A stretch of 64,000 nt of DNA from a virus (taxonomy: Duplodnaviria > Heunggongvirae > Uroviricota > Caudoviricetes). Of this stretch, positions 1,894 through 30,599 are shown one piece after another. Position 1 is the stretch's first letter. Each line of letters starts with the position of its first letter. The stretch spans positions 85,525-149,524 of IMG/VR virus record IMGVR_UViG_3300042561_002062. The stretch is one strand, 5' to 3'. The translations under genes were made by a program, and so were the position numbers. Under the pieces are notes generated by a model that made no database searches, was not told where the DNA came from, and saw only the letters and a list, made by a program, of their open reading frames with translations.

Positions 1894-1967
1894 CGCGGAG
1901 TAGTAGAAGATGGTATCTCGCCAGGCTCATAACCTGGAGATCGCTGGTTCGAGTCCAGCCTCCGCTA
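1894..1967 (+). tRNA. tRNA-Met (anticodon CAT), initiator-like (C1 mismatched with nt 72, as in bacterial fMet)
   Basis: Anticodon arm ccagg-CTCATAA-cctgg, T arm gctggTTCGAGTccagc, acceptor cgcggag/ctccgct; D stem weak. Confidence 0.7.
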
Positions 1968-1991
1968 CAAAAAAACTTACTCTGTTATCAA

Positions 1992-2064
1992 GCGGGAGTA
2001 GCTCAGTTGGTAGAGCACGATCTTGCCAAGATTGAGGCCGTGGGTTCAAATCCCATCTCCCGCT
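1992..2064 (+). tRNA. tRNA-Gly (GCC)
   Basis: acceptor gcgggag/ctcccgc, D arm gctcagttggtagagc, anticodon loop TTGCCAA, T loop TTCAAAT. Confidence 0.85.
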
Positions 2065-2107
2065 CAAAAATTTGGTGAGAGTAAGTTTTTTGATTATCTT
2101 TGTTGAT

Positions 2108-2130
2108 AGTTCTTTGACATCTTGGAAATA
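2108..2130 (+). promoter_or_regulatory. repeated promoter-like motif GTTCTTTGACATCTTGGAAA (copy 1) upstream of tRNA-Thr
   Basis: Near-identical about 20-nt motif containing a TTGACA hexamer also at 3018..3040 and 4113..4135, each 15-50 nt upstream of a tRNA. Confidence 0.5.
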
Positions 2131-2135
2131 AAATT

Positions 2136-2208
2136 GCCTCTATAGCTATAACGGTAGAGCATCGCACTTGTAATGCGAGGGTTGGCGGTTCGAATCCGTC
2201 TGGGGGCT
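2136..2208 (+). tRNA. tRNA-Thr (TGT)
   Basis: acceptor gcctcta/tgggggc (G-U pairs), anticodon arm tcgca-CTTGTAA-tgcga, T arm ggcggTTCGAATccgtc. Confidence 0.8.
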
Positions 2209-2362
2209 CACAAAAGAAAAAACTTTTTGGTGAGGTTTTATGGATGCAATACCCAGTCCTAAAACTATTCAATGTTCAACGAAAGTTGACCACTCGGTGC
2301 AATACCCGAGACATCTCAAGAGTGATGGGATTTGAGAGGTGTGGAGTTTTTTCTTTTCTTAT

Positions 2363-2436
2363 GGTTCGTTAGTAGAGTTGGTTACAATATCGCACTGTCA
2401 CTGCGAAGGTCATGGGTTCGATTCCCATACGAACCG
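2363..2436 (+). tRNA. tRNA-Asp (GTC)
   Basis: acceptor ggttcgt/acgaacc, anticodon arm tcgca-CTGTCAC-tgcga, T loop TTCGATT. Confidence 0.85.
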
Positions 2437-2651
2437 CAATGAGTAAGAGATACTCAGCAGTCTCACCAAAGACTCATTTAATCTATGGTCGGTTCTAAAG
2501 AGGACATCGTCAACGCCTCTTTCGTGGGATTAAAGGCAGGTAGCAGAGCCTCCCAGTAGCTTGGATGTTTTAATGAGGGATGCCTCGCAGGTTTTTAAGA
2601 AATAGAAAACCGAAATAACTACTCACCTGGGATCTCAGGGTGGGAAAACAT

Positions 2652-2725
2652 AGGGGAATATATCAATTGGTTAGATTACGTGCTTTGGGAGCACGAGGTT
2701 GTGGGTTCGAGTCCCGCTTCCCCTA
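2652..2725 (+). tRNA. tRNA-Pro (TGG)
   Basis: acceptor aggggaa/ttcccct, anticodon arm cgtgc-TTTGGGA-gcacg, T loop TTCGAGT. Confidence 0.85.
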
Positions 2726-2859
2726 CGAGGGTATGCATCGAAAGATGTTGTGAGTAACTCGGGTGAGTACGAAACGGACAACAATTCTAGAAGTCCCTTT
2801 TGAGCGAAACCCTTAGGTTGTAGAGGCAGTGGGTCGACACCTCATACCTTCTCTAAAAT

Positions 2860-2958
2860 AGTCAGGTGGCGAAATTGGTAGACGCTAGCTGGAAAGAGTG
2901 ATTTAGGAGTAATTACTAAGTTGGTTCACTCATATAGGTTCGAATCCTGTCTTGACTA
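2860..2958 (+). ncRNA. aberrant tRNA-like RNA A: Leu-type D arm plus T arm and acceptor, anticodon arm replaced by a 6-bp stem (gagtga/tcactc) enclosing a 24-nt loop
   Basis: 5' agtcagg-tg-gcgaaattggtagacgc ... ataggTTCGAATcctgt-cttgact-a; no 5-bp stem / 7-nt loop anticodon arm can be drawn. Confidence 0.55.
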
Positions 2959-3072
2959 CAAAAAAAAAAATAAAGAAAGTGGCGAAAGTTCAAAAAAAAC
3001 ACCTATATTTGTATCACGTTCTTTGACATCTTGAAAACAACCCAGAAACATCTGTGAAGATATAAGTTTCAT

Positions 3073-3144
3073 GCTCCGTTCGTCTAGGGGTTAGGACACC
3101 AGATTTTCATTCTGGTAACAGGGGTTCGATTCCCCTACGGAGTA
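3073..3144 (+). tRNA. tRNA-Glu (TTC)
   Basis: Colinear with the E. coli tRNA-Glu layout: gctccgt-tc-gtctaggggttaggac-a-ccaga-TTTTCAT-tctgg-taac-aggggTTCGATTcccct-acggagt. Confidence 0.85.
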
Positions 3145-3337
3145 CGGAGATAGACAAACCGCATCTATCGGGTCATTGCTCTAGACCTTTAACAGAGCAC
3201 GATTTATCGGGTTATCGCGAAACCAGGTCTTGGAATCAGAAAGATGACAATTTCTCCAAGTAGTCGGACTTTTTTTTGAGGATGCTCACTTTGTTTTTTG
3301 AAAAAGTAAAAAACAAAAAACTACTACTCACTATAAG

Positions 3338-3368
3338 GGGTAAGTGAGGGTTCCGGATAAAACCGGAA
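3338..3368 (+). terminator. intrinsic-terminator-like hairpin inside the tRNA array
   Basis: ggttccgg-ataaaa-ccggaacc followed by a TTTTCTTTT run. Confidence 0.45.
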
Positions 3369-3380
3369 CTTTTCTTTTAA

Positions 3381-3454
3381 GGGCCCTTAGCTCAGTAGGT
3401 TAGAGCGTCTGACTCATAATCAGGTGGTCGTAGGTTCGAGCCCTACAGGGCCCA
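3381..3454 (+). tRNA. tRNA-Met/Ile2 (CAT), second copy
   Basis: acceptor gggccct/agggccc, anticodon arm tctga-CTCATAA-tcagg, T arm gtaggTTCGAGCcctac. Confidence 0.85.
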
Positions 3455-3516
3455 CAAAATATATACATTCTTGAGTTGAAAAACTTAAAGCTATTATATA
3501 GTATAATACTAACTTT

Positions 3517-3591
3517 GGTCCCGTAGCTCAGTCTGGATGGAGCGACTGCCTTCTAAGCAGTAGGTCATTGGTTCGAATCCAATCGGGATCA
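3517..3591 (+). tRNA. tRNA-Arg (TCT)
   Basis: acceptor ggtcccg/cgggatc, anticodon arm actgc-CTTCTAA-gcagt, T loop TTCGAAT. Confidence 0.85.
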
Positions 3592-3780
3592 CAATTACTT
3601 ATTTGAAAAAAATAAAAAGGAACAAAACTTTTCTAATATATACAATATACACATTATGAAAAATCAAATACATAACCAAATTAGTCTTTATCTCCAGAAG
3701 TGGAATGCGTGTGTATTTGCCAAAAATAAACCGAGGTTAGAAATGTTTTGATACTATAAACAACATAAACTAAAACTTAA

Positions 3781-3810
3781 CCTCGGGACAAAATCTCGAG
3801 GTTTTTTGTT
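3781..3810 (+). terminator. intrinsic-terminator-like hairpin
   Basis: cctcggg-acaaaat-ctcgagg (7 bp incl. G-U) followed by TTTTTTGTTTT. Confidence 0.5.
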
Positions 3811-3814
3811 TTAT

Positions 3815-3886
3815 ACGGGCCTGATGTCAACGGCAGACCGTCTGACTTGCAATCAGAACGATTGGGTTCGATTCCCACAGTGTCCA
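3815..3886 (+). tRNA. tRNA-Cys (GCA)-like, possibly degenerate (acceptor stem does not pair well)
   Basis: Good anticodon arm tctga-CTTGCAA-tcaga and T arm tgggTTCGATTccca, but no convincing 7-bp acceptor; a canonical Cys(GCA) exists at 5636..5706. Confidence 0.35.
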
Positions 3887-3892
3887 CAACAA

Positions 3893-3966
3893 GGGGTAAA
3901 AGCACATAAGGATGTGCAACCGCCAAACGGCGGGTGGCTTGGGTTCGAATCCCAGATACTCCACCA
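3893..3966 (+). ncRNA. tRNA-like element with genomically encoded 3' CCA and no canonical anticodon arm
   Basis: 5' ggggtaa ... hairpin gcac-ataaggat-gtgc, hairpin ccgcc-aaac-ggcgg, T arm ttgggTTCGAATcccag, then atactcc-a-CCA. Confidence 0.4.
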
Positions 3967-3970
3967 TTAT

Positions 3971-4041
3971 TGTCCCCTCGTCTAACGGCAGGACAGCAGA
4001 CTTTGATTCTGCTTATCGAGGTTCGAATCCTTGGGGGACAA
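3971..4041 (+). tRNA. tRNA-Gln (TTG)
   Basis: acceptor tgtcccc/ggggaca, D arm gtctaacggcaggac, anticodon arm gcaga-CTTTGAT-tctgc, T arm cgaggTTCGAATccttg. Confidence 0.8.
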
Positions 4042-4136
4042 CGAAAAAAAAAAAGAAAAAATGCTTGGATCGAGAAAGATATCGCACTATCTTTGTAATC
4101 AAATAGAAGGTAGTTCTTTGACATCTTGGAAAATAT

Positions 4137-4208
4137 GCTCTCGTGGCGCAACGGTGGCGCAGGATACTTATATTATCAAGGTTACAGGTTCGAATCCTGT
4201 CGAGAGTA
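4137..4208 (+). tRNA. tRNA-Ile (TAT) (putative AUA decoder)
   Basis: acceptor gctctcg/cgagagt, D arm gcgc-aacggtg-gcgc, anticodon loop CTTATAT with a 4-bp + mismatch stem, T arm acaggTTCGAATcctgt; preceded by the TTGACATCTTGGAAA motif. Confidence 0.65.
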
Positions 4209-4408
4209 CACGTTCCGAAACAAGACAACGGATAGTGTGCCCTACACGATGAGAAACGGAGTGATGTCCGTATGGGAACGTACATTGGTGTATAGGGATA
4301 ACACCAGGGCAAGTCAGCCCGACCTCGTGAGGACGAATGACTATTCCTAACTCAGTGATGAGGACAGCCGTGACACCGGTAAGTTGGATAGAAGAGGGTG
4401 TCAAACAT

Positions 4409-4555
4409 AGTCAGGTGGCGAAATTGGTAGACGCAGCTGTGATGATTTTGCTGGAAGGTGTAACTCCTTAACAAGTAACTCGCGATTACTGTTTAAATAT
4501 TAGCAGGGTTAATCAGTTCCCAATCATCGTGAAGGTTCGAATCCTTCTTTGACTA
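4409..4555 (+). ncRNA. aberrant tRNA-like RNA B (about 147 nt): same acceptor/D arm as A, with about 105 nt of structured insert closed by a 7-bp stem gatgatt/aatcatc
   Basis: agtcagg-tg-gcgaaattggtagacgc-[insert]-gaaggTTCGAATccttc-tttgact-a; insert has nested stems (tgctg/cagca, ggg..ccc). Confidence 0.5.
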
Positions 4556-4639
4556 CTTGAAAATGGTGAAAAATTCTACCAAGAATTTAACATCTCTTAC
4601 CTATTAAGATTTAGGTGACAGTCGGAATAGACGACAAAT

Positions 4640-4713
4640 TCCTCGGTAGCTCAGATGGTTAGAGCACTTGACTGTTAATCAGGGGGTCGTTGGTTCGAGT
4701 CCAACCCGGGGAG
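4640..4713 (+). tRNA. tRNA-Asn (GTT)
   Basis: anticodon arm cttga-CTGTTAA-tcagg, D arm gctcagatggttagagc, T arm gttggTTCGAGTccaac. Confidence 0.8.
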
Positions 4714-4717
4714 CGAA

Positions 4718-4790
4718 GACTTCGTAGCTTAATTGGTAAAGCACCTGGCTTTTAACCAGGGGAGTAGCGGTTCGACCCCGCTCGGGGTCA
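4718..4790 (+). tRNA. tRNA-Lys (TTT)
   Basis: acceptor gacttcg/cggggtc (G-U pairs), anticodon arm cctgg-CTTTTAA-ccagg, T arm agcggTTCGACCccgct. Confidence 0.8.
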
Positions 4791-4796
4791 CATCAT

Positions 4797-4878
4797 ACCG
4801 ATGTGGCGAAATAGGTAGCCGCGCTAGTCTTAGGAACTAGTGTCTTACGACGTGAAGGTTCGAGTCCTTTCATCGGTA
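4797..4878 (+). tRNA. tRNA-Leu (TAG), type II
   Basis: acceptor accgatg/catcggt, D arm gcgaaataggtagc, anticodon arm ctagt-CTTAGGA-actag, long variable arm, T loop TTCGAGT. Confidence 0.85.
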
Positions 4879-4887
4879 CGAAAATTT

Positions 4888-4962
4888 GCACCTTTAGCTC
4901 AGCAGGTTCAGAGCATTTGCCTTACAAGCAAAGGGTCGCTAGTTCGAATCTAGCAAGGTGCA
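4888..4962 (+). tRNA. tRNA-Val (TAC)
   Basis: acceptor gcacctt/aaggtgc, anticodon arm tttgc-CTTACAA-gcaaa, T arm gctagTTCGAATctagc. Confidence 0.85.
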
Positions 4963-4963
4963 C

Positions 4964-5067
4964 CCACTCTTAGTGTTATGTGGTAAAACACACTGACCTT
5001 TGTGTCGCCTGGTACTGCAGTATCCGAACACAGAGCGAGTAAGTTGGTTCGAATCCAACAGAGTGGA
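4964..5067 (+). ncRNA. aberrant tRNA-like RNA D (about 104 nt): acceptor ccactct/agagtgg, D arm and T arm present, anticodon arm replaced by stem tgtgt/acaca enclosing a 22-nt loop
   Basis: ccactct-ta-gtgt-tatgtggtaaa-acac ... tgtgt[cgcctggtactgcagtatccga]acaca ... gttggTTCGAATccaac-agagtgg-a. Confidence 0.45.
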
Positions 5068-5073
5068 CAATAT

Positions 5074-5165
5074 AGTCAGGTGGCGGAATGGTATCCGTTA
5101 CTAATGTGGGAAGACCCCTGCAATGTTCTTAAACCACACTACAGGTTCGAATCCTGTCCTGACTA
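5074..5165 (+). ncRNA. aberrant tRNA-like RNA C (about 92 nt): same acceptor as A/B, internal stem tgtgg/ccaca enclosing a 24-nt loop
   Basis: agtcagg-tg-gcggaatggtatccg ... tgtgg[24 nt]ccaca ... acaggTTCGAATcctgt-cctgact-a. Confidence 0.5.
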
Positions 5166-5308
5166 CAAAACGCAATGAACAGAAGTATGGAACAAAGACC
5201 AGCGCAGGTCTCCATATGGAGTTAGCACCCTCAGCCTGGGCCCAGAGAAAACTCTGATGAAGCTGTTAAGATTGGAGCGAGATGGGTACTCCAACATTGT
5301 GTTTATCT

Positions 5309-5381
5309 GGTGATGTAGCTCAGTTGGTAGAGCAAGGGACTGAAAATCCCTGTGTCGGTGGTTCGATTCCGTCCATCACCA
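5309..5381 (+). tRNA. tRNA-Phe (GAA)
   Basis: acceptor ggtgatg/catcacc, anticodon arm aggga-CTGAAAA-tccct, T loop TTCGATT. Confidence 0.85.
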
Positions 5382-5390
5382 CACAAATAC

Positions 5391-5472
5391 GCCTGTATCG
5401 CATAGCGGCAATTGCAACTGACTGTAAATCAGTCCTCATTCGAGTCCGGAGGTTCGAGTCCTTCTGCAGGCA
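5391..5472 (+). tRNA. tRNA-Tyr (GTA), type II
   Basis: acceptor gcctgta/tgcaggc, anticodon arm actga-CTGTAAA-tcagt, long variable arm, T arm ggaggTTCGAGTccttc. Confidence 0.8.
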
Positions 5473-5477
5473 CACAT

Positions 5478-5551
5478 TGGAATATAGCTCAGTTGGTTAG
5501 AGCATTTGACTGATATTCAAAAGGTCGCTGGTTCGAATCCAGCTATTCCAA
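5478..5551 (+). tRNA. tRNA-Ile (GAT)
   Basis: acceptor tggaata/tattcca, anticodon arm tttga-CTGATAT-tcaaa, T arm gctggTTCGAATccagc. Confidence 0.85.
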
Positions 5552-5556
5552 CATAA

Positions 5557-5628
5557 GGCCCCTTAGGCTAATGGATAAACTGCTTCGCTACGGACGAAGT
5601 GTTGAACGTTCGAATCGTTTAGGGGCTA
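5557..5628 (+). tRNA. tRNA-Arg (ACG)
   Basis: acceptor ggcccct/aggggct, anticodon arm cttcg-CTACGGA-cgaag, T arm gaacgTTCGAATcgttt. Confidence 0.8.
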
Positions 5629-5635
5629 CAATTCG

Positions 5636-5706
5636 GTACTGTGTCCGACTGGCAAGGTGGGGCTCTGCAAAAGCTCTTATATTGGTTCAAATCCAATCAG
5701 TACCTC
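5636..5706 (+). tRNA. tRNA-Cys (GCA)
   Basis: acceptor ggtactg/cagtacc, anticodon arm gggct-CTGCAAA-agctc, T arm attggTTCAAATccaat. Confidence 0.8.
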
Positions 5707-5714
5707 AAAAATTA

Positions 5715-5786
5715 CGGGTGTGGCTCAATTGGTAGAGCAATGGTCTCCAAAATCATAGGCTGGGAGTTCGAGTCTCTCCACCCGTG
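5715..5786 (+). tRNA. tRNA-Trp (CCA)
   Basis: acceptor acgggtg/cacccgt, D arm gctcaattggtagagc, anticodon arm atggt-CTCCAAA-atcat, T loop TTCGAGT. Confidence 0.85.
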
Positions 5787-5793
5787 CTTGAAT

Positions 5794-5867
5794 AGCGAAG
5801 TAGCTCAGTTGGTTAGAGCACAGGATTCATATCCCTGAGGTCAGCAGTTCAATTCTGCTCTTCGCTA
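5794..5867 (+). tRNA. tRNA-Met/Ile2 (CAT), third CAT species
   Basis: acceptor agcgaag/cttcgct, D arm gctcagttggttagagc, anticodon loop TTCATAT, T arm agcagTTCAATTctgct. Confidence 0.8.
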
Positions 5868-5876
5868 CCCATTTAT

Positions 5877-5951
5877 GGTGGTCGTAGCTCAGATGGTTAG
5901 AGTGCCTGATTGTGGTTCAGGAGGTCGTGGGTTCGATTCCCATCGGTCACC
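5877..5951 (+). tRNA. tRNA-His (GTG) with encoded G-1 and C73
   Basis: g-gtggtcg acceptor, anticodon arm cctga-TTGTGGT-tcagg, T arm gtgggTTCGATTcccat, discriminator C. Confidence 0.85.
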
Positions 5952-5956
5952 CCAAA

Positions 5957-6043
5957 GGAAGATTGGCTGAGAGGTCTATAGCGGCACCCTGCTAAGGTGT
6001 TAGTCGGGAAACTGGCTCATTGGTTCGAATCCAATATCTTCCG
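5957..6043 (+). tRNA. tRNA-Ser (GCT), type II
   Basis: acceptor ggaagat/atcttcc, anticodon arm gcacc-CTGCTAA-ggtgt, long variable arm, T arm attggTTCGAATccaat. Confidence 0.85.
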
Positions 6044-6113
6044 CAAAAAAAAAAACCTGGTTTGTTTTCAAGATTGTCTAGAAACAATTACCTATCTAAA
6101 TTATATACCCAAT

Positions 6114-29915: not shown

Positions 29916-30599
29916 ATGAAAAGAATGAAACTTTTTGAAGAGTTCAATCAACTACAAGGTGACAACTTTCAGGAAAATACAAATCGCGAAATTTATATCC
30001 TAATAGGACCTCCAGCAGTTGGAAAATCTACTTGGATCGAAAATAATCTGATGGATAAAAATCCACATATTATCAATAGAGATTTAATAGTAGAACAGGT
30101 AGCCGAAGAAATGGGTCTTACCTACGATGATATGTTTTCAGTTCCAGGTGCGGATAAAAAAGAAGGAGATGTTGATGATAAATTCGGAACAGTAATTAAA
30201 TCACCTAGTTGGATGACTTGGCAAAAACTTTCTTATGATAAAATATCCCAAGCCAACGAAGAAATACAAAGAAGACTTGATAGAAGAATATCAGAAAGTT
30301 CCGGAAAATCTTGTGTTGTAGTTGATATGACTAACATGACTAAAAAATCCAGAAAAGGAATGCTCGATAAAGTTCTAGCAGCTACTGGTAGTGGTTATAA
30401 AAAGATTGCGGTAGATTTTGAGTTTAAAGGATTTGAAGATGTTATATATTCAGCTTCAGAGAAAAGATCACGCGAGTATAAACAAAGAGGTAAGAGTAAA
30501 ACTATTTCGAAGGAAGTATTGAACAGAATGTTTTCACATTACGAAGCTGTTGATGATAGCGAAGGTTTTGACGAGATTATCGTAGTTCCTCATTACTAA
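29916..30599 (+). CDS. P-loop polynucleotide 5'-kinase (T4 Pnk kinase-domain-like)
   Basis: ILIGPPAVGKSTW...NPHIINRD parallels T4 Pnk GCPGSGKSTW..NP..NINRDD. Confidence 0.6.
   Translation: MKRMKLFEEFNQLQGDNFQENTNREIYILIGPPAVGKSTWIENNLMDKNPHIINRDLIVEQVAEEMGLTYDDMFSVPGADKKEGDVDDKFGTVIKSPSWMTWQKLSYDKISQANEEIQRRLDRRISESSGKSCVVVDMTNMTKKSRKGMLDKVLAATGSGYKKIAVDFEFKGFEDVIYSASEKRSREYKQRGKSKTISKEVLNRMFSHYEAVDDSEGFDEIIVVPHY

Follow-up and report, generated by a model that had tools for sequence, protein, structure and literature searches.

We describe a family of tRNA-like elements without an anticodon arm that is represented by three copies, A, B and C, in the genome of a tailed phage (Caudoviricetes; IMG/VR record IMGVR_UViG_3300042561_002062, positions 85,525 to 149,524). 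This stretch of 64,000 nt is referred to as the window. All coordinates given without a contig label refer to it, and labels such as L009 denote other contigs. The window has a GC content of about 33%. Its plus strand carries a tRNA array (1894-6044, 42-47% GC) with 23 tRNAs called by ARAGORN and no credible open reading frame (ORF), while a 24th tRNA, tRNA-Leu(UAA), is located at 17448-17532 on the minus strand. Elements A, B and C lie within the array and are composed as listed here. Scores are from R1, a covariance model that was built from the constant part of the family, the chassis.

2860-2958, plus strand: element A; 5' frame 2860-2885, 3' frame 2934-2958, insert 2886-2933; 72.7 bits with R1
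2886-2933, plus strand: insert of A; linker 2886-2895, closing helix P1 2896-2901/2926-2931, U48 at 2933
4409-4555, plus strand: element B; 5' frame 4409-4434, 3' frame 4531-4555; 51.9 bits with R1
4435-4530, plus strand: insert of B, 96 nt; closing helix P1 4441-4447/4522-4528, extra hairpin at about 4474-4490
5074-5165, plus strand: element C, with a 4-bp D stem; 5' frame 5074-5098, 3' frame 5141-5165; 72.9 bits with R1
5099-5140, plus strand: insert of C; closing helix P1 5105-5109/5134-5138

Anatomy of elements A, B and C

The three elements share their termini, as read directly from the sequence. Each begins with AGTCAGGTGGCG(A/G)AAT(T)GGTA and ends with ..AGGTTCGAATCCT..(C/T)(C/T)TGACTAC. 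A first-pass annotation made from the bases alone had reported these ends, and they were found where it placed them; its consensus (A/T)(C/G)GG for the bases before TTCGAAT was slightly off, since the 5' strand of the T stem is ATAGG in A, GAAGG in B and ACAGG in C. Common to all three are an acceptor stem, D arm, U48 and T arm of the tRNA-Leu type, and none has an anticodon arm. The chassis consists of a 7-bp acceptor stem, U8, A14, A15, G18G19, the T loop TTCGAAT and discriminator A. Its D stem of 3 bp (GCG/CGC) is like that of bacterial tRNA-Leu, U48 is the last position of the insert, and U3:A70 is carried by A, B and C alike.

The Rfam tRNA model scores A at 32.6 bits and C at 35.4 bits (gathering score 29) and aligns their acceptor, D and T arms end to end, with a local end of 33-35 nt taking the place of the entire anticodon arm. 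Element B is not detected by this model and is found by the family model. ARAGORN, run on the window, makes no call for A, B or C. The intact acceptor, D and T arms and the missing arm of 5 bp and 7 nt, both proposed in the first-pass annotation, are thereby borne out. Each insert is instead closed by a hairpin, formed by GAGTGA/TCACTC in A (6 bp around 24 nt), TGTGG/CCACA in C (5 bp around 24 nt) and GATGATT/AATCATC in B (7 bp around 74 nt). These hairpins had been anticipated as well, with the insert of B put at about 105 nt rather than the 96 nt found here.

Family size and distribution

IMG/VR was searched with a pattern of 20 bases from the 5' end, AGTCAGGTGGCGRAAT(N)GGTA, which matched at least 120 viral loci. 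The 3' half was outside the query. Among the 120 matches listed, it contained ACAGG-TTCGAAT-CCTGT in 63, CCTGACT in 101 and discriminator A, followed by C, in 105. An unqueried 3' half that is nearly invariant at 120 or more loci places the match far beyond chance. A narrower pattern of 26 nt matched 61 loci, seven of them in common with the 120 matches listed, and from these seven overlaps the family may be estimated, roughly, at about 1000 loci in contigs of uncultivated phages. Many of the matches originate from the Lake Mendota series.

A scan of 185,579 species genomes gave 17 matches. Of these, 16 were on contigs of metagenome-assembled genomes (MAGs), about nine in Bacteroidota bins (Sediminibacterium, Chitinophagaceae, Flavobacterium and Saprospirales), and judging by these bins the hosts are probably Bacteroidota. 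The lone match in an isolate genome (Thalassotalea) has no T arm and was rejected as a chance match. Generic T-arm matches and no family member were returned from 50,697 GenBank phage records, and a literature search, by concept and by sequence string, found no description of such a family. A single constant chassis combined with at least 148 swappable, individually conserved inserts at about 1000 phage loci appears to be undescribed.

Below A, B and C, R1 ranks genuine tRNA-Leu genes of the window (42.6 and 38.7 bits) and then tRNA-Ile(UAU), which has the same T arm. This ranking fits descent of the chassis from a phage tRNA-Leu, and the higher-scoring of the two genes is likely to be the kind of ancestor from which it came.

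4797-4878, plus strand: genuine tRNA-Leu(UAG); 42.6 bits with R1, next after A, B and C; T arm resembling that of B

Applied to the fetched loci, R1 gave 207 matches in 100 loci. A phage has from one to about nine elements, each with a different cargo, as we also call the insert. In the array of L009, nine elements with different inserts are arranged within 3.8 kb between tRNA-Ile(UAU) and tRNA-Leu(UAA). The family includes variants with an altered acceptor or D arm, and the minihelix of acceptor and T arm is the most conserved part throughout. Among 112 pattern-defined elements, ARAGORN assigns a tRNA to 33 (about 30%), with anticodons that are scattered and arbitrary.

A second insertion is present in some members, either as a D-loop hairpin or as a hairpin-bearing segment that splits the 3' strand of the acceptor stem (L147:1957-2127, L151, L036:4982-5151, L035:1690-1824; L020, L026, L059, L130). 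The split strand of L020 reads ...CCTGTC, about 50 nt, and then TTGACTAC.

Covariation of the chassis and absence of an anticodon

Chassis helices were assessed in the 86 R1 matches not called by ARAGORN, which comprise 53 distinct frames. Acceptor and T pairs are each paired in 87-96% of cases, up to five standard pair types occur per acceptor or T pair in these 53 frames, and the innermost T pair is an invariant G-C. The full alignment A2 contains true tRNAs and was itself fitted to the model. Pairing in it reaches 98.7% of cells, versus 85% in shuffles, with 222 double changes versus 29, and slid controls collapse. U48 is found in 107 of 115 elements. Among the features of a canonical tRNA, the acceptor, the D arm with G18G19, the T arm, U8/A14 and the 15-48 pair are present, and the anticodon arm with U33 and purine 37 is not.

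The flanks are also tRNA-like. Upstream, U(-1) is present in 151, A(-2) in 135 and A(-4) in 144 of 190 elements, all three being known leader preferences of bacterial RNase P. Downstream, C follows the discriminator in 180 of 190 elements and in 23 of 23 bona fide tRNAs of the window. With such flanks, the elements should be processed like neighboring tRNAs.

Among 188 inserts, 4 contain a hairpin resembling an anticodon arm (5 bp with a 7-nt YU-NNN-R-N loop), as compared with 4.5 ± 2.1 in shuffles. The first-pass annotation had offered two accounts of the elements, as tRNAs with an unusual small intron or as anticodon-less tRNA mimics. The intron was rejected: no anticodon-stem halves flank the inserts, anticodon-like hairpins are at chance level, insert length goes down to 20 nt and none of the intron families matches. 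Genuine and selected mimics, and not simple pseudogenes, are what the data favor, in that the arms covary and inserts are conserved within classes. The covariation test proposed along with that account gave a signal in acceptor, T and cargo helices.

Classes, conservation and structure of the inserts

Inserts range from 20 to 229 nt in length, with a median of 54. The 188 unique inserts form 148 classes, 27 of which have two or more members. Compensatory helix changes were observed within the classes of L107/L163/L195 (GGGTAC..GTACTC versus GGTAAC..GTTATC), L012/L176 and L010/L169, and the six-member L016 class displays double changes in three pairs of the closing helix and four of the T stem. 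Where the 100-nt flanks of two same-class members are no more alike than random sequence (22 pairs), the inserts have a median identity of 88% and the chassis one of 94%, figures that are biased upward by ascertainment, as the classes were defined by insert similarity. Over the whole population, inserts are mildly structured in folding analyses (mean z -0.6, p 5e-9). More inserts than expected have a helix adjoining the T arm, where tRNA-Leu has its variable arm (121 of 186, versus 87 ± 6).

Each insert of the window has homologues elsewhere. The class of B is found in nine other contigs, where its core is conserved and one site holds different hairpins. An element nearly identical to C, with the same insert, was identified by the genome scan on a MAG contig from a Bacteroidia bin (L136), and a homologue of the A insert (92% over 114 nt) was identified by the metagenome scan (contig L214); in both cases, the flanks are unrelated. 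Exact-pattern scans of IMG/VR with A-type and C-type inserts returned zero matches.

Genomic context of the family

Up to 15 kb of sequence was examined around each element locus. For 72 of 112 elements the examined flank contains no other tRNA, and any tRNA that does occur there shares the strand of the element (40 of 40). The upstream gene is co-oriented with the element in 81 of 97 cases. Several elements are located directly upstream of terminase genes, including one (L027:5738-5862) that is separated by 8 nt from the stop codon upstream and by another 8 nt from the ATG of terL downstream. Direct repeats flanking the elements are at the level of a shuffled-pair control, so that the target-site duplications expected of miniature inverted-repeat transposable elements (MITEs) are absent from the family at large. 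Window proteins are rarely found in element loci.

The element of L027 / L097 is flanked by an 8-bp direct repeat, AAAAGATT, which is an exception and no general trait of the family.

Element D and an Ala-type mimic

Two further anticodon-less RNAs are located in the array of the window.

4964-5067, plus strand: element D; acceptor CCACTCT/AGAGTGG, D arm GTGT/ACAC, long hairpin, T arm GTTGG/CCAAC; 16.8 bits, full length
3893-3966, plus strand: Ala-type anticodon-less tRNA mimic of 74 nt; G3:U70, D arm, T arm and encoded CCA; 28.4 bits with the tRNA model, z -3.06

Element D follows the plan of A, B and C with a different acceptor and D arm, as the first-pass annotation had recognized, and represents a second class of anticodon-less tRNA-like RNA. 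It was found in seven IMG/VR contigs, across which its long hairpin shows compensatory changes, and the order tRNA-Val, D, Leu-type element is kept in six of the seven. The RNA at 3893-3966 had been described as tRNA-like, with an encoded CCA and no anticodon arm. The first two points stand; at the anticodon position there is in fact a 5-bp stem, although with a 4-nt loop. No relative was found in IMG/VR when the RNA was used as an exact pattern.

This RNA has the G3:U70 pair and CCA end of the tRNA-Ala-like part of transfer-messenger RNA (tmRNA). As a tmRNA candidate it was rejected, scoring 18.3 bits against a gathering score of 47 with its ends only, with no tmRNA call by ARAGORN, a length of just 74 nt and neither an mRNA-like ORF nor pseudoknots. 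Immediately upstream, 3817-3886 (plus strand) is a candidate tRNA-Ala(UGC) that has G3:U70 and whose acceptor stem is imperfect (Rfam 32.4 bits, not called by ARAGORN). Ala is the sole amino acid missing from the ARAGORN list, and the candidate is most likely the otherwise missing tRNA-Ala(UGC) of the array.

A Ro60-like protein and the accessory region

The window also encodes a protein for which a relation to Ro60 had been proposed.

18114-19577, minus strand: Ro60/TROVE-vWA-like protein; Pfam DUF2828 and DUF7788

The predicted fold agrees with that proposal. An AlphaFold2 model (predicted local distance difference test, pLDDT, 73.6) was compared with known structures using Foldseek and matched, over its full length, a 'Trove domain' (9kop, E 9e-8), the Ro60 of Thermus phage phiLo (9l5y, E 4e-7), D. 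radiodurans Rsr (2nvo) and human Ro60 (9nen). By sequence, the protein has no match in the PDB. On the strength of the model, the predicted structure is a Ro60 fold, with a HEAT-repeat ring and a vWA domain. The ORF as listed has a TTG start and 487 aa, and close homologues (87-99% identity) have 472 aa; compared with these, it is probably 15 codons too long, with a true product of 472 aa.

Downstream of the array, an accessory region that includes the gene of this protein carries RNA-repair and anti-defense genes together with genes for phosphoribosyl pyrophosphate (PRPP) synthetase and a DNA methylase. The former include the following.

19688-20137: cREC
20167-21180: T4 Rnl1-like RNA ligase
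25063-25605: 2H/Acb1-like phosphoesterase
29916-30599: tRNA-ligase-type kinase

The tRNA-repair and anti-defense set, PRPP synthetase included, covers 19688-21180, 25063-25605, 29916-30599 and 22768-23874. A cREC homologue is located close to an element at about 8 of 200 loci (L081, L152, L154, L174 and others).

Interpretation

We propose, with about even confidence for and against, that A, B and C are stand-alone genes for small RNAs that descend from tRNA-Leu, and that they belong to a large family specific to phages. In this family, the chassis would provide processing and stability, and possibly leucylation, and the insert would be the effector. The chassis would allow the RNA to be cut from its transcript exactly as neighboring tRNAs are, and would give it a nuclease-resistant L-shaped fold, probably a CCA end and possibly a leucyl group. 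The cargo module would stand in for the anticodon arm, in many elements also for the variable arm, with each class constituting its own structured small RNA domain. As effector, the cargo would probably be a binding or decoy module acting against host or phage factors in a conflict over tRNA or translation.

Reading these elements as small RNAs on a tRNA chassis follows from which parts are kept and which are replaced. The acceptor/T minihelix and the elbow are what RNase P, RNase Z and the CCA-adding enzyme recognize, and E. coli leucyl-tRNA synthetase (LeuRS) depends on A73 and core tertiary pairs but requires neither the anticodon arm nor the variable arm. The elements conserve those parts of a tRNA that are recognized by RNase P, by the enzymes of 3' processing and CCA addition, by T-loop modification enzymes, by EF-Tu and by the Leu or Ala synthetase, and they replace the part that all of these ignore. 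A bolder version, which we regard as speculative and doubtful, is that freshwater Bacteroidota phages possess a modular RNA 'display' system, with an RNase P-processed, LeuRS-chargeable chassis and hundreds of modules swapped as cassettes, each of which would neutralize or hijack a different host factor. Were this true, the system would be an RNA-based arsenal for counter-defense or host takeover, with a logic like that of protein anti-defense islands.

Several observations count against the proposed small RNA family. The acceptor and T-arm sequence is near-invariant beyond what pairing demands, which a need for a scaffold alone leaves unexplained and which hints at a sequence-specific partner or a recent horizontal spread. 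Analysis of k-mer enrichment across inserts revealed no common motif, nothing being present in more than 23 of 103, and a complementarity comparison of the A, B, C and D inserts with the 64-kb window gave only chance matches of 11-12 nt. No protein family is linked to the elements: when 1632 ORFs from 120 loci were clustered, the largest cluster was present in 11 of the 120 loci and none was consistently adjacent. At the orthologous locus L027/L097, the flanks are 88-90% identical and the insert is nearly unalignable, which could also represent relaxed constraint. Inserts thus turn over fast between related phages, yet are kept as units across unrelated contexts. The ascertainment bias in the within-class identities belongs on the same side of the balance.

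Four other explanations were weighed. In one, which we consider unlikely and which partly overlaps with our proposal, the acceptor end is the point and the insert only tunes it. LeuRS, or alanyl-tRNA synthetase (AlaRS) in the case of 3893-3966, would aminoacylate non-decoding mimics that serve as a sink or decoy for synthetases, EF-Tu or acceptor-targeting defense toxins, or as amino-acid donor for a non-ribosomal transferase. Leu and Ala are two of the three tRNA identities without an anticodon requirement, and the window's mimics copy precisely these, one type having the Leu features A73, A15/U48 and G18G19 and the other the Ala features G3:U70 and an encoded CCA, which keeps the explanation alive. 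It also accords with an acceptor/T minihelix that stays most conserved even where the D arm changes, and with the tRNA-repair and anti-defense genes of this phage (Rnl1-like ligase, cREC, 2H phosphoesterase and kinase). It leaves unexplained, however, the conservation of inserts within classes, their covarying helices and the presence of up to nine copies with different inserts in one phage, and some members have non-Leu D arms. Less probable again, in our estimation, is that the fold is nothing but a cleavage signal for RNase P and RNase Z in polycistronic transcripts, as in mitochondria or MALAT1/mascRNA, with a released RNA that is functionless. The many solitary elements, co-orientation with the upstream gene, spacings of a few bases from ORFs such as the 8 nt on either side in L027, and leaders and trailers like those of window tRNA genes all suit such punctuation. 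Elements that sit among tRNAs, however, as in the window and in arrays like that of L009, have no ORFs to separate, and a cleavage signal needs neither insert conservation nor covariation.

The first-pass annotation had also suggested a partnership with the Ro60-like protein. In such a partnership, Y-RNA-like elements would bind the TROVE ring and tether it to host nucleases. Phage Ro60 binds phage-encoded Y-like RNAs (PMC12135203) and bacterial YrlA mimics tRNA (PMC4201824). The predicted Ro60 fold of the window protein and a TROVE homologue about 2.3 kb from an element in L128 also speak for this idea. We nevertheless judge it highly improbable. Known RNA partners of Ro60 have neighboring genes, Yrl1 and Yrl2 of phiLo being encoded just upstream of its Ro60 (PMC12135203), and their termini form a Ro-binding stem. 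The Rfam YrlA and Y_RNA models do not match A, B or C, the best YrlA scores in the region (21-29 bits, gathering score 69) coming from alignments that bridge adjacent tRNAs, and the termini of A, B and C lie in the acceptor stem, the opposite of the YrlA topology. The TROVE gene is 13-15 kb from the elements on the other strand. No family member lies within 10 kb of the TROVE homologue in seven viral loci, L128 is the one case among about 200 element loci with a TROVE homologue nearby, and the TROVE family, with at least 7960 homologues, is far larger than the roughly 1000 element loci. Neither Rfam nor a reading of 17420-18130 and 19500-19700 revealed a Y-like RNA beside the TROVE gene. The likeness of CUUGACUA in A to a vertebrate Y RNA, raised in the same connection, applies to a minority variant only, the family consensus being CCUGACUA (101 of 120 listed matches). 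An interaction of the elements with the TROVE protein in trans may occur in this one phage. Smallest of all is the probability we assign to non-functional or selfish DNA, that is, decaying tRNA-Leu pseudogenes, small-intron tRNAs or a MITE-like cassette whose ends are kept for its spread. A frame that is near-identical across phages sharing almost no proteins, the unrelated contexts, insert turnover at an orthologous locus and the one direct repeat of L027 would be compatible with it. Against it stand flanking repeats at chance level overall, retention of the tRNA tertiary positions, RNA-level covariation in acceptor, T and cargo helices and, for introns, the missing anticodon-stem halves, inserts down to 20 nt and the lack of an intron family match. 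Punctuation, Ro60 partnership, pseudogenes or introns and a selfish cassette are all less likely than the small RNA family that we propose.

Comparison with known systems

T4 species 1 RNA (rnaC) and species 2 RNA (rnaD) are, like the family, small stable RNAs within a phage tRNA array, and rnaC has a canonical T arm (CCGGGUUCGAAUCCCGG) beside an acceptor-like terminal stem and no anticodon arm. Unlike the family, they are single genes without interchangeable inserts or a Leu-type D arm, they have no sequence relation to it, and Rfam scores them at only 17.5 bits (tRNA-Sec model). To our knowledge, the anticodon-less tRNA-like RNAs of phage tRNA clusters, known since T4 species 1 RNA, have never been explained. 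About 1000 natural examples with a modular anatomy make this question tractable by comparative genomics and simple biochemistry.

An engineered tRNA scaffold for recombinant RNA expression is reportedly due to Ponchon and Dardel. In such scaffolds (reviewed in PMC5937877 and PMC7961669), as in the family, a structured RNA takes the place of the anticodon arm, and the chimera is processed and stabilized as a tRNA. The scaffold is man-made with a tRNA-Lys or tRNA-Met body, whereas the family has a Leu-type body and often an insert at the variable-arm position. If our proposal is true, the family would provide the synthetic scaffold with its first counterpart in nature.

YrlA and phage Y RNAs (RF02553; PMC4201824, PMC12135203) share with the family a mimicry of tRNA acceptor, D and T arms, the lack of an anticodon and an occurrence in phages. 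Their termini, in contrast, form the Ro-binding stem at the site of the anticodon stem, their acceptor stem is closed by a loop, and they are encoded beside rsr. The tRNA-like domain of tmRNA and Ala minihelices, in which a top half with G3:U70 and CCA is charged without an anticodon, resemble 3893-3966. The tmRNA illustrates the principle of a tRNA body with a functional insert, although 3893-3966 has no mRNA-like ORF or pseudoknots. Among eukaryotic and herpesviral RNAs, mascRNA (MALAT1) and the tRNA-miRNA-encoded RNAs of murine gammaherpesvirus 68 (MHV68) likewise have tRNA folds without a working anticodon, are processed by RNase P and RNase Z and carry RNA modules, which are appended downstream and not inserted.

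The family points to a large unexplored set of small structured phage RNAs in hosts that are probably Bacteroidota and are not known to have Hfq-type small RNA biology. The elements are also an annotation hazard, in that Rfam scores them as tRNA and ARAGORN gives about 30% of them a tRNA with an arbitrary anticodon. Counts of phage 'tRNAs' in metagenomic viruses, and arguments on codon usage built on them, are contaminated as a result.

Further observations on the tRNA array

Among the 23 tRNAs of the array, just two, tRNA-Val (4888-4962) and tRNA-His (5878-5951), have a complete CCA after the discriminator. The variable loop and T arm of tRNA-Ile(UAU) at 4137-4208 (plus strand; compare L009:9-81) are identical to those of the family (UUACAGGUUCGAAUCCUGUC), and this tRNA borders element arrays in other phages, which suggests that real tRNAs and the chassis have a common origin or have undergone gene conversion with each other. 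Between tRNA-Ile(UAU) and B lies a conserved non-coding RNA of about 200 nt (4205-4412, plus strand), whose ends are conserved and whose center is variable. Its homologues in L146, L101, L023 and L189 always abut tRNA or tRNA-like genes, two of its hairpins show compensatory changes, and it has no match to an Rfam family. Two GC-rich spacers on the plus strand are conserved as well. The spacer at 2415-2653 shares 85% identity with L114 and 78% with L146, similarity stopping right before the tRNA-like elements of these contigs, and the spacer at 5166-5308 is conserved in L191, L188 and L214. Given this conservation at the sequence level, both spacers are probably further small RNAs.

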